A stretch of DNA of 64,000 bases from Paenibacillus thalictri (GCF_004307995.1 NZ_SIRE01000004.1:403309-467308), one strand, 5' to 3'. Shown: positions 36,898-57,753, numbered from the stretch's first letter. A program made the numbers and translations. Notes: generated from the sequence alone by a model not told the origin.

Positions 36898-37143
36898 TCA
36901 AATTGTTCTCCGCTGAAGAGGGCATACGCCGTTTATAAGGTAACAGTCATGAGTTCCTGCGACAAGCAGTATTTGAGTATAGTGATTTTTCATGGCCTTA
37001 AGGAAATGAACACTTTGTTGGTTGGAATGGCCCAAGTCCCCTGCAATAACAAGGACCTTCGAGCATTCCTGCGGCAGTATATTCTCCACCAAGGAGTCAG
37101 ATCCTTGGCAAGCTTGCATGGCTCGTACCGCGTTCCGGGTCAA
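36898..37143 (-). pseudogene. Truncated calcineurin-like metallophosphoesterase fragment, with an adjacent out-of-frame ankyrin-repeat-like fragment at about 37144-37250
   Basis: 81-aa ORF with VIAGDLGH and GTHD (GNHD-like) motifs but lacking the remainder. Immediately upstream, a different frame encodes PSPANSHDLVRLLLSYGADPD (ankyrin consensus) without a proper start. Confidence 0.4.
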
Positions 37144-37384
37144 GAAGCTCTTGATCCGGATCTGCGCCGTAGGAGAGCAGAAGTCTTACCAGATCGTGGC
37201 TATTTGCCGGCGACGGCATTCCATACAGCTCAAATCCACCCCCTCCCCTTTGTTATTCCGGCAATCTCAGTCTAGCAGAGGGGATGTACAAAAAAATGGA
37301 CAGCAAACATCAGCGGCCAAGCAAAAAGAACAAACAAAAAGAGCATCCCCCGACCACATAATAGGGGAACGCTCTTTCGAATGA

Positions 37385-40300
37385 TTATAACTTTCTCTGC
37401 AAATTCTGCTCGTAGGTTTCCTTAAATTTGTCGCCGAACAGCTCGAATTCCTGTAAATAATCCCGGCAGGACCGCAACAGGTTCATGTACATGATGGACA
37501 CGTTGGGTTCCTCATCCAATATGGACGCCAGCTCGAAAACTACAGCCGTTCCGGTACCGCCATAATCCCATAGGTAATCTTCATTCTCCTCGATGGCGTA
37601 ACTGATCGCTTTAGCGCTCAGATGCTGCCTGGCATATTCCTTGTCGATAATCAGGGTGTCTCCGGGCACGTAAATTTTGACGTGATCATTGATGACGGTC
37701 ACTGCAGCCCGGTCTTTGGCGGTCACGGCATATGAAATTTTTTCCCCTGCAAAATCAAATTCCCTGATCTCCACTTCATTCTGTTCGCCATAAGGAACCG
37801 GTTCCTTCCCGTCCCGGGAACCATACAAGCCGCTATGGAGCTTCTCATTGATGATTTGCCGGTAATAGAACTGTTCCTCTTTCGTGGCGGCCCGGCCCAT
37901 AAGTCGGATCAACTCGTTAACGTCCAGGCTCTCGTCAATGTCCACCGCAGCTTCGGGCTCATCCATATCAACCGTGTATTCCGGGATTACGGCTGCGGCG
38001 GCAGTAGCTTGAGCTTGCGTGAGCCGCTCGACGGCCAACGCAAAACCCTGCTCCGCCGATTTCCCGTACCATTCCATCGCCTCCTCCTTATTCTGCGGTA
38101 CGCCATAGCCATTCTCATAACAGAAGCCCACATTGTACTGCGCTTCCGCGTGTCCCAGTTCGGCAGCCTTGCTGCAATATTCGAAGGTTTTGTTCAAATC
38201 GCGTTCGATCCCTTTGCCTGAAAAATAACACTCTCCAATCACATTAAGAGCTTCCGGATTGCTCCAGTACGCAGCAGACTCCAATACCTCAACGGCCTTC
38301 CGGATGTCTTGCTCCGTTCCAACACCATTTCGGTAACAGTTCCCCAACTTAACAATTGCCTCTTCTATAAAGCCCGATTTTTCAACGGCTAGTTTAAAGT
38401 ATTGAAAAGCTTTGCCGGCATCCTCCCCGACATGGACATCCAAGCTTGGGCAGTAGCCCATCTCGTATGCCAGCCCTAATTCGTAAAACATACTGTTGTC
38501 TTGCTGCGTTTCCGCCAGTTGCTCATACAATCCGATCAGCTTGGGGCCGTATGTTGTACCGTATTTCTTTGTGTAAAGATCTGCCAGAGGAACCAGAGGT
38601 TTGTCCGATTCACTTTCAAATACGGGGTAGCCTTGCAAATAGGCTTCCTCCATCAGAATCTCCGCCTGTTCCAAATCGGCCGGAACCCCTCTACCCTCCA
38701 TGTACATCACAGCCAATGAAAACTTGGCATACGTATTCCCTTGCCGGGCCGATAGCCCCAACCAGTAGGCAGCCGTCTCGTCATTCCGAGCGACCCCTCT
38801 GCCGCCTTCGTATAGAGCGCCCAGATAGTACTGCCCGGTAGCGCAGCCTTGTTTTGCAGACTGCCCATACCAGCGGGCTGCTTGTTTTTCATTTTGGGGA
38901 ACCGCAATGCCACGCTCGTAAAAATGGCCCACCATGGTTTGTGCCGCAATATGGCCCGATTCCGCCGCTTTGATGTAATATGGGAATGCCAGGTCTAGTT
39001 TGCTCCAGCTGCCATAATCTTCAGCCGCGAGGTAATACCCTTCCACAACCTCCCGGATCGACTTTTCATCCCCCAGCTTCACTGCTTGCTCTAACCAATA
39101 AACAGCCGTTGTGTAATCCTTCCGTTCCTCATTCTCGGCCATATAGAAGAGCCCAAGATTCCGCATCGCCTCCGGATCCCCAAGCTCTACAGCCTGCCGG
39201 TACCATTGCTCGTATTGCCGGTAATCCTCCGCAATTTCCCCGTCTGAACCAAACATACGATCCAGATAGAACCTTCCCCGTTCATCTTCTCGCTCCGCGG
39301 CGTGCCGGAAATAGCCGGCAGCTTGCCCGTAGTCCAGAGGTACCCCGGTCCCTTTTAAAGAATATAAGCCCAGTGCATGGAGCGCACTCTTGCTGCCCAG
39401 TTCAGCCGACTTCCGGTAAATCTCGGCGGCCTGCTGAAAATCCATATCCGCAGCATATGCCTCGGCCAGAACGTGGCTGCAATCGATCAGCTTGCTTCCG
39501 GCATTCTCGTTGCCCACCCGGACGGCTTGTTCATACCGATGAATCGCCATGCGGAGACGGATCGTTTTACCATAATGCCGCTCCGCTTTTCCATCTTTCA
39601 ACATGTCGCCCAGCCATTCCTGTGCGGTCCCGTCTCCTTGCTCCGCTGCGAGGTTATACCACTTGAAGGCGGCTTCATAATCCGCCGGGACCCCTTTGCC
39701 GAATTCATACATATACCCCAGGTGCAGCTGGGCGGTAATATCCCCGGCTTCGGCGGCTTTTAGGTAATAATACAACGTCTGTTCATGATCCTGCTCAGAT
39801 TCGAATCTGCGGGCCAGCGAATAATACCATTCAGCGGTTTTTTTCGCAGCAGCTTCATGGCCTAATCCTGACGCTTTTTCATACCATTCCGCTGCAAGCT
39901 CATATTCCCATTCCGAAGACAGGAAGTCTCCGATTTTCGCAAAATGGTCAGCCTCCTCGTATCCCGGATCGCCATATTTCTCCGCCTCCCGGTAGTGCTC
40001 CATAGCAGCCGTGAACATTGCTTGATCAACCGCCGCTTTGGCCAACCGGCAGCAGCACTCGTGGAGTCCGTTCCGGTAGTAATCGTTATCACGGATTTCC
40101 CCCGCTCCCCGATACCAACCAAGGGCTGCTTCCACATCGTCCTTCTCCAGTGCTTGCTCTCCAAGCTTCAGATAACACCGGTTCAAATCCCAATCGCAGC
40201 TGCAATCACCTGTCTCGTTCGCTTTCCTATACCACCTTGCGGCTTGCTCATAGTCTGGAACGTCGCAATTGGAATCGCAGTCTGAATAATAGTTGCCCAA

Positions 40301-42424
40301 CGCTTCCATAGCGGCTGCACAATCAAGCTCTGCCGCCCTTTTATACCATTCCACGCCCCGCTGGTAATCGCCATTCGCATAGCAGCGCTCGGCAACCTCC
40401 ACATAATGTTCTTCAGCGGACTTATTGGCGAGTCGGACACCGCCCGCCGCTGCGTACCATTCCGCAGAAGTATCGTCGTCGGCATAAACCCCGTTGCCTT
40501 CGAAGTAACATGCGGCCAATAAGAGCATACAATCTTCATGCTCCAATTTCGCGCCTTTCTCCAAAAGCTCGACGGCCTCTTGGCAGCTGTATTCCTCAAG
40601 AAGCTCCTTGGCCCATTCGAAATAACAGTCCGCCAGCCAAGCGTCAGCGTTATCGATTCCTGCAGCTCTAGCCTGCTCATAATAATGAACCGCTTGTTCG
40701 TAGCTTTGCTTGACGCCATATCCGTTTTCAAGGCAGTTGCCGATTTGCAGCAGCGCCTTGTTATTGCCGTATTTTAGCGCTTTACGGAAATAGTCGCAGG
40801 CTTTGCCTTTTTCATCCGAAGCCTTGGACTTCAAATAGTGTTCGCCGATGGCGTAAGAGCCTTCCGCTGCCTGTAGCCTGGCTTCGTCGTCCCCGCGCTC
40901 AGCCGCCTGTTCGAACCAATACACGGCCTGGAACGCATTTTTCTCGCAGCCTTTGCCTTCCTTATAGCAATAGGCAATATTTTTCATCGCCACCGGATCG
41001 CCCTGATTGGCCGCCTGCTCATAATAATGGGCCGCCTGCTGATCGTTCCGGTTTACACCTTCGCCTCTGGCATAGAGCACACCCAAATTATTCTGCGCCG
41101 CCGCCGAGCCGTTGCGGGCCGCCTGTCCATAGTACTCAGCGGCCTTGCCTGCATTCGGAGCCACGCCAATGCCATTGGCATAACATAAGCCCAGATCAAA
41201 GAAGGCGTCCTGATTACCGTAATCTGTCGCTTTCCGAAAATAAGCAAAAGCTTTAGGCCGCTCCTGCTCCTCTTTCGCGTTCCAATAGCGTTCCCCGATT
41301 TGATGCGAGAGGACGGCAACCTGCTCCGCTGCTTCCAGATGCTTTCGTTCTGCTGCCTGCTCGAACCAATAAAGTGCCTGCTGCCTGCTTTTTTTCAGGC
41401 CCGCTCCGTTCAAGCAGCAATGCGCCAAATTCCACATGGCGTTAGTATTGCCGCCTTTTGCAGCGATATCGTACCAGTAGACGGAAGTCTGGACATTTGG
41501 GGCGACCCCCTCGCCATTGGCATATAGAACGCCCAAATTGTTGGCCGCACCCGCATGCCCGGCCCGGGCAGCTTTTTCATATGCCGGAACGGTGACTTTA
41601 TACTCGTTATACTTCTTGGCTTTCAGCGCCAGTTCGTAATGAAATTCCGCATAAGACCTCCTGGCTTGTTCGCAGCCGCGGTTCGCAGCCGTCTGGAACC
41701 AGGAAAGGGCCTGGGTGCAATCGCCTCCGGAGCTGCCGTTCTCCTGATAATATACCGCCAACAAGTAAGGAGCTTCAGCATGTCCCAGTTCCGCCGCTTG
41801 TTTGAACAGCTCTACCATCTCACGCGAATTCGACCGCATCTGCCAAAGCTGATTCGCCCGGTGGAACAGCTCCGCCGCCGTCGGCGGCTTCGGAGCGGGA
41901 GGAACAGGTTTCGGAGCAGGAGAGACAGGCTTGGGTGCGGCATATTGCGGCTTCGGCGTGTTGAGAGGTTGACGCTGCGATTGTCCGAAAGGAGTCCGGG
42001 GCGGAGCGGGCGGCTTAGCTGCGGGCTTCTTTCTATGCTGTTCCAGGAAAGCGTCAAATGTAATACGCTCATCAGCCACGAACCCCGGATAATACGTGTG
42101 TACGTACTTTCGGACTAACTCCCGGTCCGTCCCCCTGTATTTCCCCTTATCCTTACCCCCTTGGTAGTTGGCGCTTTTTTCCCGGTTGAAGTTATAGGCG
42201 CGCACAATCGAAGACACCGTCCGGCTGTCATCCAACGAGAAGGCCTCGGCAATTTGGGGTTGCGTTTTGTTCTGCACGATATATGCATAGATCACCTCCG
42301 TATGGAGGTCTTTGCTGTAGCTTTTAAGTTTGGGCAGTTCATTATGAGTAGCGGACATGGTCGGAATCACCTCGTGGTTGTAAGACCTTTTGTTTCGTTT
42401 TCCGTAATTCGACATAAATTTCAT
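37385..42424 (-). CDS. Giant Sel1-like repeat (SLR/TPR-family) protein, 1679 aa: N-terminal HTH-like segment, Pro-rich linker, ~25-30 Sel1 repeats, unique ~250-aa C-terminal domain
   Basis: Dozens of repeats of the pattern A..W(Y/F)..AA..G...A...LG..Y..G.GV..(D/N)...A. Linker PAAKPPAPPRTPFGQSQRQPLNTPKPQYAAPKPVSPAPKPVPPAPKPP. N-terminal TQPQIAEAFSLDDSRTVSSIVRAY resembles an HTH. Confidence 0.8.
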   Translation of the reverse strand: MKFMSNYGKRNKRSYNHEVIPTMSATHNELPKLKSYSKDLHTEVIYAYIVQNKTQPQIAEAFSLDDSRTVSSIVRAYNFNREKSANYQGGKDKGKYRGTDRELVRKYVHTYYPGFVADERITFDAFLEQHRKKPAAKPPAPPRTPFGQSQRQPLNTPKPQYAAPKPVSPAPKPVPPAPKPPTAAELFHRANQLWQMRSNSREMVELFKQAAELGHAEAPYLLAVYYQENGSSGGDCTQALSWFQTAANRGCEQARRSYAEFHYELALKAKKYNEYKVTVPAYEKAARAGHAGAANNLGVLYANGEGVAPNVQTSVYWYDIAAKGGNTNAMWNLAHCCLNGAGLKKSRQQALYWFEQAAERKHLEAAEQVAVLSHQIGERYWNAKEEQERPKAFAYFRKATDYGNQDAFFDLGLCYANGIGVAPNAGKAAEYYGQAARNGSAAAQNNLGVLYARGEGVNRNDQQAAHYYEQAANQGDPVAMKNIAYCYKEGKGCEKNAFQAVYWFEQAAERGDDEARLQAAEGSYAIGEHYLKSKASDEKGKACDYFRKALKYGNNKALLQIGNCLENGYGVKQSYEQAVHYYEQARAAGIDNADAWLADCYFEWAKELLEEYSCQEAVELLEKGAKLEHEDCMLLLAACYFEGNGVYADDDTSAEWYAAAGGVRLANKSAEEHYVEVAERCYANGDYQRGVEWYKRAAELDCAAAMEALGNYYSDCDSNCDVPDYEQAARWYRKANETGDCSCDWDLNRCYLKLGEQALEKDDVEAALGWYRGAGEIRDNDYYRNGLHECCCRLAKAAVDQAMFTAAMEHYREAEKYGDPGYEEADHFAKIGDFLSSEWEYELAAEWYEKASGLGHEAAAKKTAEWYYSLARRFESEQDHEQTLYYYLKAAEAGDITAQLHLGYMYEFGKGVPADYEAAFKWYNLAAEQGDGTAQEWLGDMLKDGKAERHYGKTIRLRMAIHRYEQAVRVGNENAGSKLIDCSHVLAEAYAADMDFQQAAEIYRKSAELGSKSALHALGLYSLKGTGVPLDYGQAAGYFRHAAEREDERGRFYLDRMFGSDGEIAEDYRQYEQWYRQAVELGDPEAMRNLGLFYMAENEERKDYTTAVYWLEQAVKLGDEKSIREVVEGYYLAAEDYGSWSKLDLAFPYYIKAAESGHIAAQTMVGHFYERGIAVPQNEKQAARWYGQSAKQGCATGQYYLGALYEGGRGVARNDETAAYWLGLSARQGNTYAKFSLAVMYMEGRGVPADLEQAEILMEEAYLQGYPVFESESDKPLVPLADLYTKKYGTTYGPKLIGLYEQLAETQQDNSMFYELGLAYEMGYCPSLDVHVGEDAGKAFQYFKLAVEKSGFIEEAIVKLGNCYRNGVGTEQDIRKAVEVLESAAYWSNPEALNVIGECYFSGKGIERDLNKTFEYCSKAAELGHAEAQYNVGFCYENGYGVPQNKEEAMEWYGKSAEQGFALAVERLTQAQATAAAAVIPEYTVDMDEPEAAVDIDESLDVNELIRLMGRAATKEEQFYYRQIINEKLHSGLYGSRDGKEPVPYGEQNEVEIREFDFAGEKISYAVTAKDRAAVTVINDHVKIYVPGDTLIIDKEYARQHLSAKAISYAIEENEDYLWDYGGTGTAVVFELASILDEEPNVSIMYMNLLRSCRDYLQEFELFGDKFKETYEQNLQRKL

Positions 42425-42492
42425 TTTCTATATTACTTGAAAAGAAGCCTAGATTACACAAAAATTTTCCAATACAGCCCAAGTATGGTTCA

Positions 42493-43260
42493 TTACGCGT
42501 CCGGATACAGCAGCTCCACAACCTCTGGAAGCAGCGTGTCCGTCTCATCGTCGAACTTCAGAAAGTCAAACCCGGACCCAAACGAACACAGCAGCTCCAG
42601 ATCGTACTCCCGCTCCAGATCCGGGTTCCATTGGAACACAAAAACGGCTTCCCCATGATCAAACTTTCGGGGTAAACAACCCGCTGCGGTTCGGAGCAAT
42701 CGGCTCCCCAAGCACAAAGCCGTGATACACTTGTATCCGCCTGCCTTGAATGTTGAATAAAAGTGCCGCAACGCCAAATAGTCGAACCGGTCCGCGATAT
42801 GGTTCGCTGCATCGAACAACGACCGAACCTTATCCTCAAATTCCACCAAATCCGCTCCCGCTTCCATCAAGGCCTGTTCGATCTTCATGAAACGATCCAG
42901 CATCCCTTGGCTCAAATCTGCCAACTCCGCATATGACTTCTTGTCGTTCTCAGCCATTTGCTCCAGCTGACGGGCGTTGAACCGGTTCAACCGGTTGATC
43001 TCGCCTGCCGCATCCGATTGGCGAAGCTGCAGCTCATAGATCTGCCCGTCGACGGATTGGATCAGAGCTCCAATCGCACGCCAAACCGGCTGGACATCAT
43101 CATTCGCATACTCCAGCCGATCCAGCAACGCCATCCACATCAAACTAAGCAAAGCGACCTTCTCGCCCTCATCCAGGGATGACCATGGTTTCCCGCCGCA
43201 CTGTTCTTTTATTCTCCGTATCACATGCCCGTGAAACGATTCATCAATGTAGTCTTTCAT
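42493..43260 (-). CDS. Hypothetical protein (255 aa), operon member
   Basis: Clean ORF overlapping the upstream phosphoesterase gene by 17 nt; no recognisable motif. Confidence 0.5.
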   Translation of the reverse strand: MKDYIDESFHGHVIRRIKEQCGGKPWSSLDEGEKVALLSLMWMALLDRLEYANDDVQPVWRAIGALIQSVDGQIYELQLRQSDAAGEINRLNRFNARQLEQMAENDKKSYAELADLSQGMLDRFMKIEQALMEAGADLVEFEDKVRSLFDAANHIADRFDYLALRHFYSTFKAGGYKCITALCLGSRLLRTAAGCLPRKFDHGEAVFVFQWNPDLEREYDLELLCSFGSGFDFLKFDDETDTLLPEVVELLYPDA

Positions 43261-43807
43261 CCAGCTCTCCCCCTAGTCTGAAAGCTTCATTGTTGGCGAT
43301 CAACTGTTGCAGGCCCACCGGTGTAAAATGATTGATGTCCACCCCTGCATTCAGCATGTTCGGATTGTTCCCGTAGTAGCGGAAAGCGTCGCAATCCCGA
43401 TTGTTGTGGATATGCCCAAATACATGCAGGCTCCCCTTGTAATACCTGGGCCATTCGGCCATCGGATAGTGGCAAAGGACCAGATGCCGGTCCAAATCCG
43501 TAATCTCCTTGATCTGGCTTACGCTTTCGAAATACGCCGTCAACTCAAGCCGCTTCGTCCATTTCTCGTGGTTGCCCAGAATGAGGTGTTTCCTCCCGCT
43601 GAGCTGCCGTAAATAGTACTCCGGCGTATGCCGGGACCGTAACATAAAATCGCCGACGATATAAACCTCATCCTCATTCCCGACCGTTTGATTCCAATTC
43701 CGCATGATCGCGTTATCCATCTCATCAATCGTGGCAAACGGCCGCCCACACATGCGAATTACCGCTTCATGCCCAAAATGCGGGTCCGCGATATAAAATT
43801 TGTTCAT
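43244..43807 (-). CDS. Calcineurin-like metallophosphoesterase (187 aa)
   Basis: Motifs DPHFGH, GDF, GNHE, GHIH in canonical order. Confidence 0.8.
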   Translation of the reverse strand: MNKFYIADPHFGHEAVIRMCGRPFATIDEMDNAIMRNWNQTVGNEDEVYIVGDFMLRSRHTPEYYLRQLSGRKHLILGNHEKWTKRLELTAYFESVSQIKEITDLDRHLVLCHYPMAEWPRYYKGSLHVFGHIHNNRDCDAFRYYGNNPNMLNAGVDINHFTPVGLQQLIANNEAFRLGGELDERLH

Positions 43808-44736
43808 GTTTCCTCAACTCCCGCAATTTCATTAAATTCCCGTCTCCAGTGAAAATACTCAAGATCCGCGGCATCGCCGGTCCAGTCAAGCAGATCGCAG
43901 AACAATCCCGGCTTCAGATAGAACGTCTCCTCGGGAAAAGCGGCGGCCGGTTTCGAGAGCCGTATCCGTAAACGTTCAATCCACTGCTCCAGCAGTTGAA
44001 CACTGTACACCATATAACCTAAATGAACGGGCTCATATGATGAGTAAGGCTTGAAATAGGAGGCATGGCTATTTAATACCTTTGTTCTGAAAAGGCCCAT
44101 CGTATGCTCCAGCGTCTGCAATAATTTGGATGCGCTGCGGTCGAACGGCTCGGAACCGACCGGGGACAATCGGGTGCGTTCATTCACTTCTCCGATGATT
44201 GCAAACAGCTTTCCAGCCAGTCCCCTCAATGCCTCATATTCCCGCTCTCCTGATCTTGTCCGGAGCAATACGGCAAATCGGCCCAAGCGGCCGATCTGAT
44301 CTCCACAGCGGGCCTCCCCTCCCTCCAACTCTTCTCCATCCATACATGCAGCCGAATCAGCCAAATTCGCGAATTCCTCCGTCACCCCGCCAATATCGAT
44401 GCCGAATGCATCCAATCTGTCCAGCAGCGCTACGAATACCTCGCCTGATCCGATCTGCCGGCTGCAGACCGGCTTGGCTTGCAACCTGGTCCATAACCAA
44501 TAAGGAATCCCGGTTTCATCCATATCCTGATTTTCCGCCATAGTTTCTTTAACCTCCCGATAAAAATCATTGTCCCAACCATCGCCGCGGCCAAACCCTA
44601 GCACTTGTTCCGTATAAGGCTGTAAAGGCTCCGAAAACTCCAGCGCGGGCACGTCTGCGTCCTCAAGGTTTTTTCTGGTCACCCGTCTCACCTTCACATC
44701 TTGCGCCTTCATCGTTGAACGGCCGATATGGAGCAA
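43804..44736 (-). CDS. Hypothetical protein (310 aa), operon member
   Basis: ATGA-type 4-nt overlap with the phosphoesterase gene start region; begins 4 nt after the AAA gene stop. No known motif. Confidence 0.5.
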   Translation of the reverse strand: MLHIGRSTMKAQDVKVRRVTRKNLEDADVPALEFSEPLQPYTEQVLGFGRGDGWDNDFYREVKETMAENQDMDETGIPYWLWTRLQAKPVCSRQIGSGEVFVALLDRLDAFGIDIGGVTEEFANLADSAACMDGEELEGGEARCGDQIGRLGRFAVLLRTRSGEREYEALRGLAGKLFAIIGEVNERTRLSPVGSEPFDRSASKLLQTLEHTMGLFRTKVLNSHASYFKPYSSYEPVHLGYMVYSVQLLEQWIERLRIRLSKPAAAFPEETFYLKPGLFCDLLDWTGDAADLEYFHWRREFNEIAGVEET

Positions 44737-44739
44737 TCT

Positions 44740-46542
44740 TTAGTGGAATCCGATTCTGCTTTTCTCCCGCGCTCCGTTAAAAATGTTACGTTCGGCACCG
44801 AGCAATTCCTCGGCCGCCTTCTCCATATCGGCGGTCTTTAACGTCCGCAGGTCATTGTCCTCCCGCTCGGCCATATAACCCACCGCGCTTTTGAACAGCT
44901 TGCGGATCAATCTGCCATTCCCCATATTTTCGGAGCGGATCGTTCGGATCCCGTTCACAAAGCATCTAATCGTTTCATAAGCTGTTGCCGCATTCTCCAG
45001 AACGTAGTCCTCTTTATTCGTAAAGTAAGCAAACATCTCGCACAGCTCATCCACGCTATAGTCCTTGAATTCAATTACGTTGGTCAGCCTGGAACGCATT
45101 CCGGGGTTAGCATGTTGAATGAAACGCCTCATCGGATCACCATACCCGGCGAAAATAACCAGCGTATCCGGGTTATTCTCCATCTGCCGGATAATCTCCG
45201 ATAATGCCTCGTCCGAGTAGCCGTCCGCTTTCCCTTCGCTCATCAGGCTATAGGCTTCGTCTATGAAGATCGTTCCGCCTTTTGCCTCCTCGAAGACTTT
45301 GGCGACAGTCGGTGCTGTCCAGCCGACATACATGCCCACCAAATCTTTTCGCGAAACCTCCTTAAAAGTATCGTTCGCCAGCACATTCGCTTCACACAGC
45401 ATCCTGCCGAAAATACGCGCGACGGTTGTTTTGGCTGTTCCCGGACTACCCATAAACACCGCTGCGGCATGACTGTCGGATGTCGGGTAACCACTGTTTC
45501 TCCGCTGTTTGTCAAAACTCAAACGTTTCAAAAGACGGTTTAGCTGAGCCTTCACATCCCCCATCCCGATGAGCCTGTCCAATTCGGATTTGGCATCCTT
45601 CGCCTTTCCCGAGGTTTCGTTTTTCTTACGGATATCTTTTGCGATTAATGACGAATCGAAGTCCGCTTGGGTTATCGTTCTGCTGTCGTCCCGCTTCTTG
45701 CCGATGGCTTTGCTCACGAAGGTTTCAATGTCTACGGAGCTCCGGAAGCTCATCCCGCGGTAATCCATCAGCTCCCGGATCAGCTTTGTTCTATTCAACG
45801 ACCGGGTTAACTTATAGCCCTTTGCTTTGGCGATGTCGCCAAGAACCTTCCCATAATACTGCACCGTCGGCCGTTCAAGCACACAGTACTCCATATTTGT
45901 CTCGAACAAAACCGACTTCTCGAAGAACGCAACATTGCCAAAGGAACCGAAATGCGACTCCCGTTCAGGCCGGGTCACCAGAATATAGATGAGGAACCGT
46001 CCGGACTGTTCGAAATATTCGAAGGGATCCTTGGAATTCAGATGCATCCCATCGTGGTCTTCGACGATCAAGGGATAATCCCCCGTTTTCCAGTAAGGTT
46101 CTTTAGCCTTCACCTCTCCCTCCATACGGGTGTTGAAAGCTCCGAAGCCCATTCCGAACGGCGGATTCCGCATAAATGCGCAGCTGAATTCAACCGCCGG
46201 AATGACGGGCAGATAGGCCAGATCATCCCTCCGATAGAGAATCGATTCGGAGGTCACTTCTTCCTCCCCGTCCTCATCTTCATCATCAAGGTCCATCGGG
46301 AATTCCTCTTCCTCATCGCAGCAATCCTCTTGTGCTTGCTCTTTAGCGCAGGCAACCTCCGCTATGTATTTCTTAAATAAGTAGCCGGCCGCGAGCAATC
46401 CGTCCTCCGCATAATGGCATTTGATCAGCACGCTGCCTGCTCCCTTCAGGTCCAGCTTATCGATCGAGGCCAGATGGTCCGCTATCGCAAAGTCCGCCTT
46501 CAGCTTGTCATAGGGCAGCTCCGGAACCGGAATATACTGCAT
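44740..46542 (-). CDS. AAA+ ATPase of the CbxX/CfxQ/SpoVK(EccA-type) family with ~330-aa N-terminal domain of unknown function (start re-assigned to ATG 46542)
   Basis: Walker A VFMGSPGTAKTTVAR, Walker B GGTIFIDEAYSL, sensor region SRLTNVIEFKDYS. Strong RBS GAAGGAGA 4 nt upstream of MQYIPVPEL. Acidic tract DEEEEFPMDLDDEDEDGEEE. Confidence 0.8.
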   Translation of the reverse strand: MQYIPVPELPYDKLKADFAIADHLASIDKLDLKGAGSVLIKCHYAEDGLLAAGYLFKKYIAEVACAKEQAQEDCCDEEEEFPMDLDDEDEDGEEEVTSESILYRRDDLAYLPVIPAVEFSCAFMRNPPFGMGFGAFNTRMEGEVKAKEPYWKTGDYPLIVEDHDGMHLNSKDPFEYFEQSGRFLIYILVTRPERESHFGSFGNVAFFEKSVLFETNMEYCVLERPTVQYYGKVLGDIAKAKGYKLTRSLNRTKLIRELMDYRGMSFRSSVDIETFVSKAIGKKRDDSRTITQADFDSSLIAKDIRKKNETSGKAKDAKSELDRLIGMGDVKAQLNRLLKRLSFDKQRRNSGYPTSDSHAAAVFMGSPGTAKTTVARIFGRMLCEANVLANDTFKEVSRKDLVGMYVGWTAPTVAKVFEEAKGGTIFIDEAYSLMSEGKADGYSDEALSEIIRQMENNPDTLVIFAGYGDPMRRFIQHANPGMRSRLTNVIEFKDYSVDELCEMFAYFTNKEDYVLENAATAYETIRCFVNGIRTIRSENMGNGRLIRKLFKSAVGYMAEREDNDLRTLKTADMEKAAEELLGAERNIFNGAREKSRIGFH

Positions 46543-46758
46543 GATGTCTCCTTCACTTAAACGGGCTGACATTTTTTTGGCACTGGTAATTCTGAGCATT
46601 GGTCATTCATCCTTTCGGTTTCGTATGTTACTGGCTTGCAACTCCTTCTATATTTTGATTATATCGCGCCCGATGGGGAGAAATTTGGACATCCCCCGAT
46701 TGACCATCCGTCCCTGGGAAGGTAAAATTTTCTTATCCTACCTCAGGAGGAACCCTCT

Positions 46759-47772
46759 TTGGAAAACAAATTGCCAACCCAATTTCAAATCTATTCCGTT
46801 CTCAAGCAATTTTCGTCTGCGGATCATCCTATGAATGCTGCGGAAATCAAAGAAAAATTGATAAGCATGTATCATCTGCCGAAGGGGCCCGACCGTAAAA
46901 CCGTCTATAGCCATATTCATGAATTGCAGGTACTGTCGGATAACGGCATTCTGGATTGTGAAATCTTCGCCAAAAAAGACGATCATAACAGAACCGCCGG
47001 TTATTATACCGACCCCGTTATAACCAAAGCGGAAGTGAAGCTCCTCTGCGATGCCATTGCCTATTCACGTTTCATAAAGAAGAATCACAGCATCGATCTG
47101 ATTAAGAAAATAGGCGGGGCTTTCGGCAAGGATTTCATTTCCAAGTACAAGTACATCCTGGAGTTAAAAAACAAAGAGAACAAAGATTATAACGATTCCT
47201 TTTTCAACAGCATCGAAAATATCGCTGACGCCATAGAGAAAGGAAATAAAGTAACACTTCAATACTTGCAATATGATCTGAATAAAAAATTGGTGCCTAA
47301 AGATAAAGAAAACGACGGTTTCCGTACGGTAAGTCCCTATAACTTGGTTTGGACATTAAACCATTACTATTTGTTCTGCCACGTTGAAGAGCATGGACAA
47401 GATCGATTTCTGCGGATGGATAAAATCAAGAATGTAACCGTATTAGAAGATGAGAGAATCAAGCCGCTTCCCGCAAGCTTTAATGTCCGGGACTACATCC
47501 GGAATCAAGCTTTCATGTTCGGAGGCGACCTGGTGAGCATTTCCCTGCGTTGTGAAATGCGTATGCTGGGGCAAATCATCGATTTCTTCGGTGAAGATGT
47601 AGAGATCGCTCCCATCGACGACCATTATTTCAGAGCCCATATCAAAAGCTCCATCGAGAGCATGAAATATTGGGTGCTGCAGTATATCACTGCAATCGAT
47701 CAGATCCAACCGGAGAGTCTGCGGAAAATGATCGTGCATTATTTGGAGGACGCTTTGAGGCGGAATCAGTAA
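46759..47772 (+). CDS. wHTH-WYL-domain transcriptional regulator (BrxR/CapW-like)
   Basis: N-terminal wHTH (FQIYSVLKQFSSADHPMNAAEIKEKL) and WYL domain (YNLVWTLNHYYLFCHVEEHGQDRFLRMDKIKNVTVLE). TTG start with AGGAGG RBS. Divergently oriented from the AAA/Sel1 operon and directly upstream of McrBC-like genes. Confidence 0.75.
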   Translation: MENKLPTQFQIYSVLKQFSSADHPMNAAEIKEKLISMYHLPKGPDRKTVYSHIHELQVLSDNGILDCEIFAKKDDHNRTAGYYTDPVITKAEVKLLCDAIAYSRFIKKNHSIDLIKKIGGAFGKDFISKYKYILELKNKENKDYNDSFFNSIENIADAIEKGNKVTLQYLQYDLNKKLVPKDKENDGFRTVSPYNLVWTLNHYYLFCHVEEHGQDRFLRMDKIKNVTVLEDERIKPLPASFNVRDYIRNQAFMFGGDLVSISLRCEMRMLGQIIDFFGEDVEIAPIDDHYFRAHIKSSIESMKYWVLQYITAIDQIQPESLRKMIVHYLEDALRRNQ

Positions 47773-47780
47773 AGGAGCGT

Positions 47781-50408
47781 ATGATTGAGACGGATGAGCT
47801 GTGCTCACAGGAAGAAAGCAGGAGGAATATGGGCATTATAAACGACTTTTCGCTGAATAAGCTTGTTGAGATTAAACGGGCGGCACAGGCTTACAACGCC
47901 GTCTTGATTACCGGCGGCTGCGGGACGGGTAAAACTTTCTTGGCCAAAATAGCAGCGAATGCCATTGCTAACGGTTATGCGGAGGAAGATACGGACAAGC
48001 TCGACGACGCGATTTGCGATAATGTCGAGTTGATTCATTTGCACCCGGGTTACGGTTATGAGGATTTCGTACAGGGGGTTTTCGTCAGCACTGTAAATGA
48101 CGATCTGAAATTCGAAACAAAACCGAAAATATTTCTACAGGCGATCGATTGTGCCCTGCGAAAGGAAAATAGGGACAAAGCTGTAGTGCTCATTCTGGAC
48201 GATATTCACCGGGTCAACGTCTCGTCCGTATTTGGCGAGCTGCTGTCCGTCTTGGAGAACCATCGCTCGGAGCAGCCCCAAGACGAGATTACGTTGGTGA
48301 ATGGCACACGGATTCCCATGCCGAGCAATCTATATCTCATCGCCACGATGAATACGGCGGTACCTAGCCCTTTTGTGCTGGATTATGCGTGGCTGAGAAG
48401 GTTTGCCGTCGTGCGTTTGGAATCCGATTACAGGTATGTGAAGCGCGGGCCTTCCTCCCTTGAGAAAGATACGGCGGAGCAGTTGTACGATCGGGTCAAT
48501 TCCATTGTGGCCGGCGGCGCGGACAATCCGACTGAAGCGGTTCAATATGCAATAGGGCACGGTTTTTTTGCCGAAGCGCCATTCCTGACTTCAAGAATTA
48601 AACGCCAGATCATTCCTCTGTTGAAGCAATATGTATTGGACGGAATTTTGGATGAATCGAAGGTGGGAACGGAAATCGACAGTCTGGACGCCAGTCTTAG
48701 TACCGGGATTACTTTGGACTACAATGACGTCGCTTCCTTCGACCTGTCAATGACGTTAAACAGGCTGAAAGAGACAGATATAGCTGATTATTTGGCTAAT
48801 ATAGAAGACAAAAGACGGTTTCAAGTGGAATTGATCGAACATCTGATTTGTCAAATGATAGAACGTAAGCTGATAGGGAACTTTGAACTGTTTTACCGTG
48901 TCATGCGCAATCCCGATATATTTCATTATCTTGAATCTGATGTCGAGCTTCATTTATTCGAGCCGCAAAATAAAAGTATCAAATTTCACGACAAACCTTC
49001 ACATTATTCAGCGGTCAAGAACAGCAATATGGTGGAGATTCACGTTTGCGGAACCAAGTATTTCCCATTCCGTGTCTATACGGCCAAAAACCAGAAAACG
49101 GCCTTAAGCAGCAATCCGAACAGAGAAAGCTCTAAAAGCTCGCTGAACCCTTTTCCTATCGCCTTCCGGATGCTTTATTATTTTTACAAGACTTATCGGG
49201 ACAATGTGAACGATTATGTTGCCAAATTCCCGGGCGACCACAATATGAAGCTGCTGCTCAACCTGGCGGACGATGAATTCAATTATATCAAGAGCTTTGA
49301 CAAACGGACAGCTAAGATCGTATGGGAGGATGACCCGGATCATCTCTCACTCGCAAGGCTCACGATTCTTTGGCCGCGGAAGGAAGACGGTAATTCAATC
49401 GAAATCAAAGGAGTATATCGAATGGAAGCGAACGATTACATAGACATCATGGATAATATGGAAGTGAGGCAGATGATTCTGCAAGGGCCCCCAGGTACTT
49501 CCAAAACCTATACGGCCAAGGACATGATTGCAGCAAAATGGAGCATTGCCAAAGATGAACTGAAAAACTTCAAGATTCCGTCCTACGACCAAGCTTGGGA
49601 TAAACCGTTTGGCTGGGACATCGTCCAATTTCACCCTTCTTACGGATATGAGGATTTTATAAGAGGCATCACTGTGGAAACGCCGGAAAACTCCACGGCT
49701 CCGCATTATAAAACGGTCAATAAACTATTAGGGCGTATGGCAGATTTAGCCCTCCGCGAAATCCATAGCGGGAAGAAGTTTTACCTTATTATCGACGAAA
49801 TCAATCGAGCCAATATCGCCACGGTGTTCGGGGAATTGATCTATGCATTGGAATATCGCGGCGAGCAAGTAGCAACTCCTTATGAAGTGAAAAATACGAA
49901 TTCCATCGTTCTTCCCAAGAACTTATACATTATCGGCACGATGAACACCGCGGATAAATCGGTCGGAGGGATCGATTATGCGATTAGAAGGAGATTTTTA
50001 TTCTTTTCGCTGACACCGGACGCAGGTGTAATTGAAACATATTTTGAAGGCAAACCCGGCGTGGAAGACGTTAAGAAGAAAGCCATCACATTGTTTCGCC
50101 ATATCGGCCTGTTTTTTGACAGCTATTTATCGGACGGATACCATAAGGATGATTTGCAGATCGGGCACACCTATTTCTTGGTCGACACGGTACAACAATT
50201 AAAGGATCGGTTCAAATATCAAATTGTCCCTATACTGCGCGAGTATTATAAGGACGGTTTGCTCGATAGCGGAGAAAGCGAAACCAAGCCGGAATTGAAA
50301 GATTTAAAAGCCTTTATTTCCGGAACCGAGGGATCGGCGGACGCGATGTTCGCGAAGTTAACGGCGGCAATTACGGCGGCGGCAGCAAACGGTCAGAAAG
50401 CGGAATAG
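47781..50408 (+). CDS. McrB-family AAA+ GTPase with two tandem AAA+ modules (N-terminal module degenerate, C-terminal canonical); start uncertain (47781 or 47829)
   Basis: Module 1: Walker A LITGGCGTGKTFLAK, Walker B-like LILDDIHRVNVSSVFGELLSVLE, IATMNTAVPS. Module 2: ILQGPPGTSKTYTAK, LIIDEINRANIATVFGELIYALEYRG, IIGTMNTADKSVGG (canonical McrB DEINRAN and NTAD motifs). The track ORF start at 47670 overlaps the regulator gene by 100 nt and is rejected. Confidence 0.75.
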   Translation: MIETDELCSQEESRRNMGIINDFSLNKLVEIKRAAQAYNAVLITGGCGTGKTFLAKIAANAIANGYAEEDTDKLDDAICDNVELIHLHPGYGYEDFVQGVFVSTVNDDLKFETKPKIFLQAIDCALRKENRDKAVVLILDDIHRVNVSSVFGELLSVLENHRSEQPQDEITLVNGTRIPMPSNLYLIATMNTAVPSPFVLDYAWLRRFAVVRLESDYRYVKRGPSSLEKDTAEQLYDRVNSIVAGGADNPTEAVQYAIGHGFFAEAPFLTSRIKRQIIPLLKQYVLDGILDESKVGTEIDSLDASLSTGITLDYNDVASFDLSMTLNRLKETDIADYLANIEDKRRFQVELIEHLICQMIERKLIGNFELFYRVMRNPDIFHYLESDVELHLFEPQNKSIKFHDKPSHYSAVKNSNMVEIHVCGTKYFPFRVYTAKNQKTALSSNPNRESSKSSLNPFPIAFRMLYYFYKTYRDNVNDYVAKFPGDHNMKLLLNLADDEFNYIKSFDKRTAKIVWEDDPDHLSLARLTILWPRKEDGNSIEIKGVYRMEANDYIDIMDNMEVRQMILQGPPGTSKTYTAKDMIAAKWSIAKDELKNFKIPSYDQAWDKPFGWDIVQFHPSYGYEDFIRGITVETPENSTAPHYKTVNKLLGRMADLALREIHSGKKFYLIIDEINRANIATVFGELIYALEYRGEQVATPYEVKNTNSIVLPKNLYIIGTMNTADKSVGGIDYAIRRRFLFFSLTPDAGVIETYFEGKPGVEDVKKKAITLFRHIGLFFDSYLSDGYHKDDLQIGHTYFLVDTVQQLKDRFKYQIVPILREYYKDGLLDSGESETKPELKDLKAFISGTEGSADAMFAKLTAAITAAAANGQKAE

Positions 50409-50411
50409 CCC

Positions 50412-51818
50412 ATGAAAAATAAGCTTTTCCCAGGAAACGACTGGTCTGTCCTCAACAAATTGCCAGACTGGCTGACAGACCTGGACCTCAGCGACCGGCA
50501 TCATCCTTACACCAACCTTGGAATCTATCAGGATCAACAAGGCCGTTACCTTGCGAAGGGATATGTCGGCGTATGCAGGCTAAAGGCAAACGGCAGAAGG
50601 GTGCTCGATAAAGAAGGACGGGAGTGCATCCTGCGGGTAGTGCCTCGTTTTCCGGGACTGGAGCCACTCGCCATGTTGAATGAATTGCAGGACGATGACG
50701 AATTCGCGCAATATTTAATGCCGGAAAGGGCGCTTTTGAAGGGAAGCACGGAGGAATCCAAGGATATCCTGGACAATGAACTGTTTTACTTTTATCCGAA
50801 TGAACCGCTGATCCCTTTAGCTCATGAGGCTATGAAAGACAGCAGCCTATTAACGGTTATGCTTTTTCTTAACGGCTTGAAGGCGGTGTGCAGGAAGCCG
50901 CTCATGGGATCGATGCAGCAACACGAGGAGAATTTAACCGGCAAGGTCAAAGGTAAAATACTGGTATCCCCTAATATTAAACATAATGCGGCGAGAGCAA
51001 GAGTTGAGCGTATATATTGCCGGTATCAAGTGTATAGCATGGACATCCTTGAGAACCGGATTTTGAAATATGCGCTCCATAAAGCAAACCGGTTTTTGAA
51101 TCGATTTTTCAGCCATGTCTCAACGGACTCACTGCAGAAGATCAGGCAAGCGGTACATTATTGTAATAAGGCACTGGAGCATGTAAGCCTGAAGAACATA
51201 ACGGAAGCCGAGCTCAGATCCGCCAAAGCCGCCGGGTTTTACGCTTATTACAAGCCGGTGCTGGAGGCCGCGAAGATGGTCATCAAAGGCATCTCGATTC
51301 GAGCCGACGGCGAAGTGGAGGATGTAGGTTACATTACCCCATATGCCATCAATATGCAGAAGCTGTTTGAGTTTTATGTGAGGGCGGTGATCAAGCGAGA
51401 GTTGAAGAAAAACCCGGATTGGCATATATCGCTTGAGCCTTATTTTAAACCGCATGAGATTCACCGCAACGAAAACATTTACTTGATGAGAAATGTCCGG
51501 CCCGATATTGTGCTCAAGTACATGAAGCTTGAAGGGGACCAATCTGAAGCTAAATATATCGTATTCGATGTAAAATATAAGAGGAGTGACAACAAATTTT
51601 CTGCAAGGGAAGATACTCACCAGCTCCTGAGTTATCGAATGTTATTTGATGCGGAGCATATCGGGTTCCTATTCCCGAATTGTGTAGAAAGCAGCCAGCC
51701 CACCGAGATTGTCTCGCGGCAACATACAAAAACTTACTATTATCAATTCAAGGTCTCTTTAGAAGAGAAAGGCTGTGCAAAGCTATGCCAGTTTCTCGGA
51801 GGTATTGGCAGTTCTTGA
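50412..51818 (+). CDS. McrC-like PD-(D/E)xK nuclease subunit
   Basis: 468 aa immediately downstream (4-nt gap) of the McrB-like gene. Nuclease motif RPDIVL...IVFDVKYK near the C-terminus; N-terminal McrC-like region. Confidence 0.65.
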   Translation: MKNKLFPGNDWSVLNKLPDWLTDLDLSDRHHPYTNLGIYQDQQGRYLAKGYVGVCRLKANGRRVLDKEGRECILRVVPRFPGLEPLAMLNELQDDDEFAQYLMPERALLKGSTEESKDILDNELFYFYPNEPLIPLAHEAMKDSSLLTVMLFLNGLKAVCRKPLMGSMQQHEENLTGKVKGKILVSPNIKHNAARARVERIYCRYQVYSMDILENRILKYALHKANRFLNRFFSHVSTDSLQKIRQAVHYCNKALEHVSLKNITEAELRSAKAAGFYAYYKPVLEAAKMVIKGISIRADGEVEDVGYITPYAINMQKLFEFYVRAVIKRELKKNPDWHISLEPYFKPHEIHRNENIYLMRNVRPDIVLKYMKLEGDQSEAKYIVFDVKYKRSDNKFSAREDTHQLLSYRMLFDAEHIGFLFPNCVESSQPTEIVSRQHTKTYYYQFKVSLEEKGCAKLCQFLGGIGSS

Positions 51819-51831
51819 AGCTTTTGATATG

Positions 51832-51857
51832 AGACCGCCGCGGCGGTCTTTTTTTTG
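51832..51857 (+). terminator. Rho-independent terminator closing the WYL-McrBC module
   Basis: AGACCGCCG/CGGCGGTCT perfect stem followed by TTTTTTTT. Confidence 0.8.
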
Positions 51858-52675: not shown

Positions 52676-53476
52676 TTATACTGTACACACACAAGGCACG
52701 GTATCTTCTTCCATAGCGGAGTAAGACGCCGCTCCTTCACGCTCGAGCAACTCACGGTATTCACGGAGCGTGTAGGGACCACCGTTTTTTTTCAAAATCG
52801 AGACGTCCTTGTCAAAATGCTCCCGAAACTGCTCTTCCATTTCTTCCTGTTCCCGGTACACATCCGGCCACGTCTGCAACAGATGAGCGTAGTGCTGAAA
52901 GCCGCCACGGACACAACGTCCACCGCAGTTAGCATGAGAGAAGCCCAGCTCATACATAAGAGGCAGCTTAATTCCCCATTTGTCTTCGATAATTTTCTTT
53001 GCATCAACCTCTTCTCGGAATGTCGTGATTAAGGGAAACCGAGTCTCAACAGGCTCGAGCGGGTAGTGCTCGTAGAAGTTTTTGAGATTGACCGCACGGT
53101 GCTGCTCATGGCGTCCGATACCGAAGTAGAGCACAGGCTCAAGTTGATGGTCCGAACGTAGTTCCTCAAGGAAGATGAGTGTTTGCCGCACTTTCAGCTC
53201 TTCCGAGCACTTGGCCAGCCTTGAATTACCCATGAAACGGTAGTCGTAAAATACCTGCTCCGGCGTCCGCCCGTCAGTACGGTACGTAATTTCGAGCCCC
53301 AGGTAATCCGCAACCTCATGCATAAATCGATAATTATCTTCATGCTCCCACAGCGTGTTCGTAAAAAAGAGCATGCAGTTCTCCTTACCGTACGTGTTAA
53401 CCATATGATAAGCGACATACGCGGAGGATGCTCCCCCGCTGTACATGGCAACATGGATGGGTTTGCGTTCAACCAT
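52676..53476 (-). CDS. PAPS-reductase-like PP-loop ATP pyrophosphatase (DndC/SspD-like)
   Basis: PP-loop VAMYSGGASSAYVAYHM (SGGxxS variant) near the N-terminus, 266 aa, C-terminal Cys cluster (CGGRC...CVCTV). Confidence 0.65.
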   Translation of the reverse strand: MVERKPIHVAMYSGGASSAYVAYHMVNTYGKENCMLFFTNTLWEHEDNYRFMHEVADYLGLEITYRTDGRTPEQVFYDYRFMGNSRLAKCSEELKVRQTLIFLEELRSDHQLEPVLYFGIGRHEQHRAVNLKNFYEHYPLEPVETRFPLITTFREEVDAKKIIEDKWGIKLPLMYELGFSHANCGGRCVRGGFQHYAHLLQTWPDVYREQEEMEEQFREHFDKDVSILKKNGGPYTLREYRELLEREGAASYSAMEEDTVPCVCTV

Positions 53477-53509
53477 AGTCAGCTCTCCCTCCTTGGCTGT
53501 AAGATCAGC

Positions 53510-56857: not shown

Positions 56858-57744
56858 TACCGCGCCGCCGCCTTCCATTCATAAGCCTTCTCCAGGAACG
56901 CGTATGGATCTTCGGCTTCAACCGTTAAGTTGTAGATCTGGTTCGTTCGTACGAAATGCACTGGATAGCGGGGATCTGCTTCCAATTGCGTGAGCGCATC
57001 AAGGATATGATTGGAGCTCAAATTGAACATTTTGCCCCACAGCAGCGGTTTGTATTGTAGCTCCTCCAATGTCACACTGCTAACCTGCGATCTCTGGCAG
57101 TACACCAACAATGCAAAGTAGAGCGCTTCAATGCTCACATCCATCAGCTCCGGTGTCCGCTTCACGAACTGCTCTTTGATTTCATGCAGCAAATGCAGCC
57201 CGGTGAGCGGGCTTGCCACTACTTCCTCGGGATCGTCCTCTTGACGCGAGCGAATCGTGTACAGTTGCCTCAGGCAGTCGAGGTCTTTTTTGAGCGAGCC
57301 CGCGGAAACCGTCTTGCTCGTCTGTTGCCGTGTCCACTCCGTGAGAGCTGCATGCAGTTCCTCATTCGTTGCGGAGCGAGACGCATATTCATTAAAAAAC
57401 CAATACCACGTCGTGGCCTGATCCCGATTCGATGCAAGAAAATAATGCAACAGCCCCGAGGTTAGCGGCAGCCGGATAAAGCGGTCGTGCCGATGCATCA
57501 ACTGGCCGAACGGAGTGATGACGTTAATCGGCCGACCTTCCTCGTTCTTCGCTTCCGCGATCACACCCGTCGCCAGCGACCAGAACTTCAGCGACTTCAC
57601 CATATTACGCCCCAGTCCAATGCGTTCAAAGCCGAAGTCGTCGTAGAAAAACCTTGCGCCCTGCTCATCCTCGAGCAGCATCCGGATCGCTTTTGACAAC
57701 CAATTCACCCGCAAGTAGAAACTCTGATGATGTCCAAAACGCAT
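56857..57744 (-). CDS. DUF4007-like protein (candidate SspB-like)
   Basis: N-terminus MRFGHHQSFYLRVNWLSKA matches the remembered F.(R/G)HE.F..R..WL.K signature of DUF4007. 295 aa. 10-nt gap to the upstream giant gene. Confidence 0.5.
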   Translation of the reverse strand: MRFGHHQSFYLRVNWLSKAIRMLLEDEQGARFFYDDFGFERIGLGRNMVKSLKFWSLATGVIAEAKNEEGRPINVITPFGQLMHRHDRFIRLPLTSGLLHYFLASNRDQATTWYWFFNEYASRSATNEELHAALTEWTRQQTSKTVSAGSLKKDLDCLRQLYTIRSRQEDDPEEVVASPLTGLHLLHEIKEQFVKRTPELMDVSIEALYFALLVYCQRSQVSSVTLEELQYKPLLWGKMFNLSSNHILDALTQLEADPRYPVHFVRTNQIYNLTVEAEDPYAFLEKAYEWKAAAR

Positions 57745-57753
57745 AGAGCGAAT

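Follow-up and report, generated by a model that had tools for sequence, protein, structure and literature searches.

This study concerns a five-gene operon of Paenibacillus thalictri, which is encoded on the minus strand at positions 37385-46599 of a 64,000-nucleotide stretch of DNA (GCF_004307995.1 NZ_SIRE01000004.1:403309-467308; hereafter the window). The operon codes for a tandem AAA+ ATPase, two acidic proteins called famB and famA, a small metallophosphoesterase, and a giant protein with Sel1 repeats. An earlier note on this DNA described five co-directional open reading frames (ORFs) at these positions, and both the ORFs and the distances between them were confirmed. In the order from the ATPase gene to the Sel1 gene, the junctions measure 3, -4, -17, and 68 nucleotides (nt). 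We propose that the core of the module to which the operon belongs consists of a WYL-domain regulator, the tandem AAA+ remodeler, and the acidic helical paralogs famA and famB. The genes of the operon, with protein lengths in amino acids (aa), are as follows.

44740-46599, minus strand: tandem AAA+ ATPase, 619 aa (600 aa from the ATG at 46542).
43804-44736, minus strand: famB, described in the earlier note as a 310-aa hypothetical protein; 310 aa, with a conserved part at 43804-44541.
43244-43807, minus strand: small metallophosphoesterase of the aq_1665/phrog_547 type, 187 aa.
42493-43260, minus strand: famA, described in the earlier note as a 255-aa hypothetical protein; 255 aa, a paralog of famB.
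37385-42424, minus strand: Sel1-repeat giant, 1679 aa, with an alternative start at 42358.

The true start of the ATPase gene is ambiguous between 46599 and 46542. The ATG at 46542 is preceded by a GAAGGAG Shine-Dalgarno sequence. The 19 codons ahead of this methionine, which is M20 of the longer product (46543-46599), begin with 'ML' in three close homologs, and the ORF is open in relatives. For famB, no homolog has an equivalent of the opening ~65 codons of the 310-aa ORF (44542-44736), and all six homologs begin near residue 66-72 of the P. thalictri protein. An ATG at 44541 is preceded by GGGAGG, and the start assigned by NCBI is a GTG at 44682 that yields 292 aa; either of these may be the real start. 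The gap between the ATPase and famB genes is 3, 57, or 198 nt, depending on which famB start is chosen. In the Sel1 gene, a GAGGTGA Shine-Dalgarno sequence precedes the ATG at 42358 and none is present at 42424, so its coupling to the rest of the operon looks looser.

No intergenic terminator-like site was found on the minus strand between the ATPase and Sel1 genes. The two minus-strand terminator-like sites in this interval lie within the coding sequences of the phosphoesterase and famA. Thus, the earlier proposal of a single transcript with translational coupling holds in part. It is consistent with the operon arrangement and the lack of intergenic terminators, and the overlaps of 4 and 17 nt make tight coupling secure from famB through the phosphoesterase gene to famA. 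Coupling at the ATPase/famB junction and for the Sel1 gene is less secure.

The ATPase can be divided into two domains.

45625-46599 (residues 1-~325), minus strand: D1, a degenerate AAA+ domain with an acidic loop.
44740-45624, minus strand: D2, a CbbX/SpoVK/EccA-type module with a C-terminal (R/K)IGF tail.

Matches in Pfam, NCBIfam, and the PDB agree with the previous assignment of the protein to the CbxX/SpoVK/EccA clade of AAA+ ATPases. The Pfam AAA model is matched at 2e-13, and the AAA_lid_6 model scores 22.4 bits, which is sub-threshold (cut-off 24.3). Among PDB entries, D2 is matched by CbbX (1e-39) and EccA1 (2e-37). The best NCBIfam models are SpoVK (186.9 bits), EccA (174.9 bits), and CbbX (148.9 bits), each under its equivalog cut-off (TIGR02881, 422.95 bits; TIGR03922, 466.65 bits; and TIGR02880, 459.25 bits, respectively). 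The shortfall exceeds 230 bits in all three cases.

All 16 family members examined conserve in D2 a Walker A motif (GxPGTAKT), a pore loop ([YFW]-[VIL]-G), a Walker B motif (DE), an RSR arginine finger, and a sensor-2 motif (GNGR). Both Walker motifs are missing from D1, where the family alignment places 'KCHYAEDGLL' at the P-loop position and shows the Walker-B position to be unconserved. The region that includes D1 had been regarded as an unrecognizable domain. This view must be abandoned, as an AAA+ fold was found for D1 and residues 93-111, which form the acidic tract of the protein, are a disordered insertion. The loss of Walker motifs from D1 and the invariance of those in D2 support a model of a tandem AAA+ protein with a dead D1 and an active D2. 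From its motifs, D2 appears to be a catalytically competent motor with an intact pore loop, whereas the dead D1 ring is probably structural in role. By analogy with related proteins, D2 might act as a hexameric remodeler that threads its substrates.

The protein stops about 30 residues past the lid, in an IGF tail, and nearly all family members carry an (R/K)IGF motif at, or a few residues from, the C-terminus (44740-44760 in the window). Docking tails or loops that resemble this motif include the IGF of ClpX and HbYX. The tail is therefore a possible docking element.

Profile hidden Markov model (HMM) searches gave no match for famA or famB to any family in Pfam, NCBIfam, PADLOC, or PHROGs. 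PDB profile searches with both proteins returned nothing significant, and this includes a line for EsxA with an E-value of 0.86. The earlier description of two motif-less proteins stands to this extent, but the proteins are not independent of each other. An hhalign comparison of famA with famB gave 91% probability (E 1e-6), and cross-matches between the two families with a famB profile ranged from 1e-13 to 5e-5. Both results show that famA and famB are paralogs. The two are always found as a pair.

A word search with famB among 5.8 billion clusters recovered only the protein itself, and a similar search with famA recovered just two non-self homologs. The isoelectric points predicted for the pair are 4.7 and 4.9. 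A predicted model of famA is all-helical (predicted local distance difference test score 61), and famB is presumed to be helical from its paralogy with famA. Fold searches with famA returned generic bundles only, with no informative fold match for either protein.

The ATPase family is extremely rare. A phmmer search with D1 (residues 1-325) against 1.84 billion representatives found 38 relatives, 13 of them under 1e-30. Most are 580-650 aa long with the same architecture, and each 90% cluster of the family holds only one or two members. The prospect, raised beforehand, that the operon might be a core-genome cluster was not borne out by these numbers. Searches of phage and plasmid collections by tblastn with D1 gave no match. 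A scan of IMG/VR with a full-length alignment found no full-length member, only D2 matches plus one weak partial match that extends into D1 (L143, residues 196-605, 29%). When metagenomes were scanned with a full-length alignment, 590 SpoVK-like matches were confirmed, and among the best 80 the locus named L014 is the sole full-length family member.

A word-indexed search with a three-sequence D1 alignment returned no match, and it missed even the source protein. As HMMER later found 38 relatives, the empty result reflects a failure of sensitivity rather than absence, and negatives from word-indexed searches deserve no trust when the query is acidic or of low complexity. All named hosts are spore-forming Bacillota (Paenibacillus, Cohnella, and Natranaerofaba, plus a Brevibacillus metagenome-assembled genome), and the loci range from 33 to 59% in guanine-plus-cytosine content. 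A scan of genome contigs with two narrow peptide patterns found just the Brevibacillus metagenome-assembled genome, a result that says little on species distribution. Overall, the distribution is sporadic and rare, which is the opposite of what characterizes a core sporulation or envelope cluster.

We compared 12 non-redundant loci in which the tandem AAA gene is found: the window, L001, L002 (the same as L003), L004 (the same as L005), L006, L007 with L008 (parts of the same system), L009, L010, L011, L013, L014, and L093. In the window, the operon is flanked by the following features.

46600-46758, no strand assigned: shared regulatory region, with an inverted repeat over a promoter-like site.
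46759-47772, plus strand: WYL-domain transcription regulator (Pfam WYL; PADLOC WYL 4.5e-23).
47781-50408, plus strand: McrB-like protein with two AAA_5 GTPase domains (Pfam AAA_5 2.3e-27, two stretches).
50412-51818, plus strand: McrC-family nuclease subunit (Pfam McrBC 3e-32; homologs in L006 and L014).
52676-63913, minus strand: Ssp phosphorothioation-type cluster of SspD (266 aa), SspC (1122 aa), SspB/DUF4007 (295 aa), SspH (1726 aa, FtsK-like), and SspG (336 aa), the last reaching the window edge.

The WYL gene is divergent from the ATPase gene and lies 216 base pairs from the ATPase start at 46542. An imperfect 15-nt inverted repeat, AAATTTGGACATCCC / GGGAAGGTAAAATTT, at 46681-46730 overlaps a promoter-like site (46700-46728) upstream of the WYL gene. 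The same stretch is conserved in the orthologous intergenic region of L004, and the repeat is a candidate operator for the WYL protein. Pfam detects a WCX domain in the relatives from L093 and L013, and none was reported for the WYL protein of the window.

The McrB-like gene starts at about 47781, only 9 nt past the WYL gene. In the first GTPase domain of its product, Walker A and B are intact but the NxxD motif lacks its Asp (MNTAVPS), whereas the second has a canonical NTAD (MNTADKS). The protein is 35-53% identical to orthologs in L014 (12202-15042) and L007 (4972-7437). It has no recognizable N-terminal DNA-reader domain, and a linker of ~340 residues separates the two GTPase domains. A strong terminator-like hairpin (51831-51850) is located directly 3' of the McrC gene. 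As judged from these motifs, the neighboring genes have the features of McrBC Type IV restriction, namely an AAA_5 GTPase with NxxD and an McrC partner. The FtsK-like giant of the window is SspH (4e-100). With WYL, McrBC-like, and SspBCD/GH genes all present, the annotations indicate that the neighborhood is a bona fide defense island, as had been suggested before.

The tandem AAA gene is the constant element across the 12 loci. A WYL regulator is adjacent to it in seven (the window, L004, L006, L008, L009, L014, and L093); the L004 regulator is 79% identical to that of the window, and in L093 a WYL-WCX gene lies beside a distant 726-aa relative of the ATPase. The famA and famB pair is present in six loci and is located next to the ATPase gene in the window, L001, L002, L007/8, and L014, and across the McrBC genes from it in L006. 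An McrB-like gene, with or without an McrC-like partner, occurs in five (the window, L004, L006, L007, and L014). The small phosphoesterase is found in four of the 12 (the window, L006, L009, and L013) and a Sel1 protein with the C-terminal domain of the giant in just two (the window and L004). Thus, the five genes do not form a conserved unit, as the earlier note had supposed. The boundaries of that unit were off both ways: the Sel1 protein and, less so, the phosphoesterase are accessories, and the WYL, McrB-like, and McrC genes probably belong to the same functional neighborhood.

Gene order provides evidence for a connection with McrBC. In L014, a WYL gene is divergent from a co-directional, closely spaced array that comprises famA, famB, the ATPase gene, a 98-aa ORF, an McrB gene with two GTPase domains, McrC, and a 94-aa ORF. 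In L007/8, a WYL gene is likewise divergent from famA, famB, the ATPase gene, a gene for a protein with DnaJ and leucine-rich repeat (LRR) domains, and a two-domain McrB gene. Gaps of 29-54 nt surround the short gene between the ATPase and McrB genes in L014 and L007. The order in L006 is more intricate: famB, famA, and a 97-aa ORF on one strand are followed by McrB and McrC on the other, then by a WYL gene on the first strand and finally by genes for the ATPase, a phosphoesterase, a HAD protein, a second phosphoesterase, and Mrr, again on the opposite strand. McrBC is thereby interleaved with the cassette. The spacing in L014 and L007 and the interleaving in L006 suggest that the McrBC-like pair is more than a mere neighbor. 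The McrBC partners are of different subtypes: the window, L007, and L014 have tandem AAA_5 proteins, L006 has a single-domain one, and the partner in L004 is LlaJI-type. This variety favors functional pairing over shared descent.

Locus L009 (1-11399) holds three paralogous tandem-AAA genes within 11 kilobases (kb), which are 39-45% identical to that of the window. Two of these copies lie directly beside a Metallophos gene, and a 177-aa gene stands between the third and such a gene. Also present at this locus are a WYL gene and a fragment that resembles PARG. Co-location with defense genes, previously suggested for the window alone, extends to other loci, where we find Mrr, a DUF2726 helicase, RES, a SpoIISA-like toxin, and PARG in addition to the McrB-like genes. 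The divergent upstream genes of L001 and L002 (320 and 356 aa) and other small neighbors match no Pfam family. A family of ~94-aa proteins is encoded in four of the loci (L004, 11933-12217; L006, 5388-5681; L011, 4209-4496; and L014, 16518-16784), for which no homolog was found in the window, and a separate family of ~146-aa proteins is common to L001, L002, and L011.

The 187-aa protein had been recognized as a calcineurin-like phosphoesterase, and its matches to Pfam Metallophos, phrog_547 (1.7e-44), and PDB entry 1xm7 (aq_1665; 5.7e-12) agree. A match to the NCBIfam model for PdeM, a ligase-associated DNA-damage endonuclease, is faint (7.5e-5) and far under its cut-off. Orthologs adjoin the ATPase gene in L006 (63%), L009 (61%), and L013 (38%), and further Metallophos genes are present in L006 and L009. 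Homologs also occur in 1370 phage records, which include Vibrio, Escherichia, Pseudomonas, Enterococcus, and other phages, where they are annotated just as 'phosphoesterase'. The finding that a family common in phages has host copies in defense-type operons may hint at its long-unknown role in phages. Just beyond the end of the operon lie two decayed features.

36931-37128, minus strand: remnant of a second, larger metallophosphoesterase (tblastn 59% over 66 aa to the 280-aa Metallophos gene of L006).
~37100-37252: ankyrin-like fragment (Pfam Ank E 0.024, weak).

Both had been noted before. The similarity identifies the first as a remnant of an L006-type 280-aa gene, which in L006 sits inside the same operon; its own Pfam Metallophos match is sub-threshold (E 0.0033).

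The Sel1-repeat giant is well supported as such (Pfam Sel1 8e-132, 13 stretches). Its N- and C-terminal segments match nothing in Pfam or the PDB, and the helix-turn-helix-like N-terminus proposed earlier finds no support in Pfam. A 544-aa Sel1 protein of L004/L005 aligns with residues 1182-1679 of the giant (38%). The PADLOC PtuA model gives a marginal match (2.6e-5, 21 bits) in which no single stretch passes. The giant is an occasional accessory outside the core. The view that it represents the tetratricopeptide repeat (TPR) part of EccA, split off as a separate protein, can draw on two loci only, and the N-terminal domain of the ATPase is AAA+ and not TPR.

Elsewhere in the window, a 2350-aa ORF on the minus strand (19491-26543) faces several ORFs of 360-376 aa on the opposite strand.

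From the anatomy of the operon, the D1 fold, the famA/famB paralogy, the rarity of the family, and the gene associations observed here, we tentatively favor a WYL-regulated, AAA+-driven accessory or defense module that is functionally tied to McrBC, and give this general statement a probability that falls somewhat short of even. The operon would be one half of a composite, horizontally scattered defense-island cassette. To the core we propose to add a set of swappable components, which include three kinds of metallophosphoesterase, Sel1 or DnaJ-LRR repeat proteins, HAD, Mrr, and others. Its frequent partner would be a GTP-dependent nuclease of the McrBC type. Such a cassette is a plausible new anti-phage accessory module.

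Several points dampen our enthusiasm for this interpretation. In L001, L002, and L011, the ATPase gene, accompanied by the pair or by other small genes, sits in an ordinary metabolic neighborhood with no McrBC within 10 kb, so any partnership with McrBC must be facultative. The sample comprises 12 loci only, several of which are on short contigs. A role in defense would follow from guilt by association, the physical interactions and the direction of regulation are likewise inferred, and WYL regulators also control DNA-damage responses unrelated to phage. The TRIP13 match of the ATPase in PADLOC is marginal and confined to the P-loop. Finally, famA and famB have no informative fold match, and a role for them as substrate or adaptor is pure conjecture.

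If the module is tied to McrBC, it might operate as a switch. The WYL regulator would hold both divergent operons in check until a nucleic-acid or damage signal appears. The AAA+ hexamer would then thread or remodel the famA/famB pair, or a target presented by it, and this remodeling would serve as an ATP-driven step that licenses or resets effectors such as the McrBC nuclease and the phosphoesterase. The nearest analogy for such a switch would be the resetting of HORMA adaptors by TRIP13 in type III cyclic-oligonucleotide-based antiphage signaling systems (CBASS). Sel1, LRR, and DnaJ proteins might be exchangeable scaffolds that recruit clients, and the giant might serve as an extra substrate-recruiting scaffold in the P. 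thalictri genome. We give this specific model much less credence than the general statement.

Extended by analogy, the model would define a new class of ATP-driven immune switch, in which a SpoVK-type unfoldase with a dead D1 and an active D2, together with a famA/famB heterodimer as sensor or adaptor, gates or resets McrBC-type nucleases and phage-like phosphoesterases through docking of the IGF tail. We consider this improbable at present. If true, it would reveal a protein-remodeling control layer over Type IV restriction that resembles TRIP13-HORMA but is built from unrelated parts.

A less probable alternative is that the ATPase and famA/famB, with or without the phosphoesterase and under WYL control, constitute a stand-alone defense or abortive-infection system with which McrBC is merely co-located. 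This would account for L001 and L002, which have the ATPase and the pair but no McrBC within 10 kb, for L009 and L013, which hold units of the ATPase and a phosphoesterase alone, and for the different subtypes of the McrBC partners. It also fits the window, where the ATPase and McrBC sets form separate divergent operons. However, mere co-location does not readily produce the co-directional arrays of L014 and L007, in which gaps of 29-54 nt flank the short gene between the ATPase and McrB genes, and the position of famA/famB beyond McrBC from the ATPase gene in L006 is hard to explain without coupling.

We find it quite doubtful that the genes form a WYL-controlled module for DNA damage or stress (repair or proteostasis), in which an AAA+ chaperone and a phosphoesterase act on damaged DNA ends or nucleotides. 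DriD, PafBC, and SiwR are described as WYL regulators that run DNA-damage regulons, and the faint PdeM match, the presence of some loci among housekeeping genes, and the DnaJ-domain partner in L007 point in the same direction. Yet an ATPase family so rare and patchy is unlike a repair pathway, the linkage to McrBC, Mrr, Ssp, and toxin genes is repeated, and swappable accessory genes are typical of conflict systems. Least probable is that the ATPase serves secretion as a chaperone like EccA, or sporulation as a factor like SpoVK, with Sel1 as a detached TPR-like adaptor and famA/famB as secreted or assembled substrates. The nearest relatives of D2, the spore-forming hosts, and the predicted helical nature of the pair can be cited for it, but every equivalog cut-off is missed by a wide margin, the N-domain has an AAA+ rather than a TPR fold, no type VII secretion system (T7SS) genes are present and the nearby FtsK-like giant is SspH, and Sel1 proteins are confined to two loci. 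With just 38 representatives, the family is also too small for a core sporulation factor.

Whichever reading applies, the sequence comparisons indicate that two protein families, famA and famB, and a degenerate AAA+ D1 domain are new. The extreme rarity of the family limits its general importance. The module would offer three small proteins with which to probe how unfolding machines control immune nucleases.

PADLOC-DB v2 gave no system-specific match for the operon proteins. The ATPase has marginal matches to TRIP13 (1.7e-4, 19 bits) and IetA (2.7e-3) in the AAA core/P-loop region only, and famA, famB, and the phosphoesterase have none. The module corresponds to no system in Pfam or NCBIfam, and a full-text literature search turned up no description, in keeping with the earlier impression that no named system fits.

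Within its own clade (CbxX/CfxQ), the ATPase shares with CbbX, EccA, and SpoVK the D2 sequence, the AAA_lid_6 lid, the pore loop, and the arginine finger. It differs from them in its extra dead AAA+ D1, whereas CbbX and SpoVK have no N-domain and EccA has a TPR domain. SpoVK is a single-domain protein of about 320 aa and a core sporulation gene product. We rejected assignment as a SpoVK equivalog on the basis of the NCBIfam score, the length of 619 aa with an additional domain, and the small size of the family, and no sporulation genes were found in the genomic context. An assignment to EccA and T7SS was rejected because the score is likewise too low, the N-domain has an AAA+ fold, and the FtsK-like giant is not EccC/EssC; no WXG100 protein was detected in this context. 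Identity with the Rubisco activase CbbX was also rejected from its score, and no Rubisco genes are present among the window ORFs scanned.

TRIP13/Cap6 and HORMA/Cap7 form a regulatory pair in type III CBASS. The likeness of the cassette to this pair is in concept only: an AAA+ remodeler and small adaptors are encoded beside a nuclease effector in a defense operon. The cassette has no HORMA fold or CD-NTase, and its AAA+ protein is of a different clade. It resembles systems controlled by BrxR/CapW-type regulators in having a WYL gene divergent from, or upstream of, the cassette in seven loci and an inverted repeat over a promoter-like site. It differs from them in that the cargo is an undescribed cassette and in that the WCX domain is detected by Pfam only in L093 and L013.

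The closest parallel is found in Type III-A CoCoNuT McrBC operons, which embed a SpoVK-type tandem ATPase whose C-terminal domain alone is active (Bell et al., eLife 2024, PMC11090510). Both ATPases belong to the SpoVK clade of AAA+ proteins and combine two ATPase-fold domains, with Walker A and B kept in the C-terminal domain alone. Both are encoded in or beside McrB/McrC-type operons in defense islands, and each has a small companion protein whose function is unclear. However, the McrB of the window has NTAD (NxxD), whereas the CoCoNuT branch is defined by NxD, and no neighbor has a Pfam match to the von Willebrand factor A (vWA) domain, which in CoCoNuT is present as duplicated (TerY-like) flanks. 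A further hallmark of CoCoNuT is the coiled-coil protein CnuB. The CoCoNuT ATPase has a C-terminal fusion of LRR and beta-barrel where the protein described here ends in the IGF tail, and its partner is a glycine-zipper/inactive restriction endonuclease protein rather than famA/famB and phosphoesterases. The WYL regulator attached to the window cassette is a further difference. We therefore rejected membership in CoCoNuT on the basis of the NxxD motif, the missing vWA flanks and LRR/barrel fusion, and the other partner proteins. If the module modulates an McrBC-type nuclease, it would represent a second and independent instance of a SpoVK-clade AAA+ remodeler recruited to Type IV restriction, after the uncharacterized CoCoNuT III-A ATPase.

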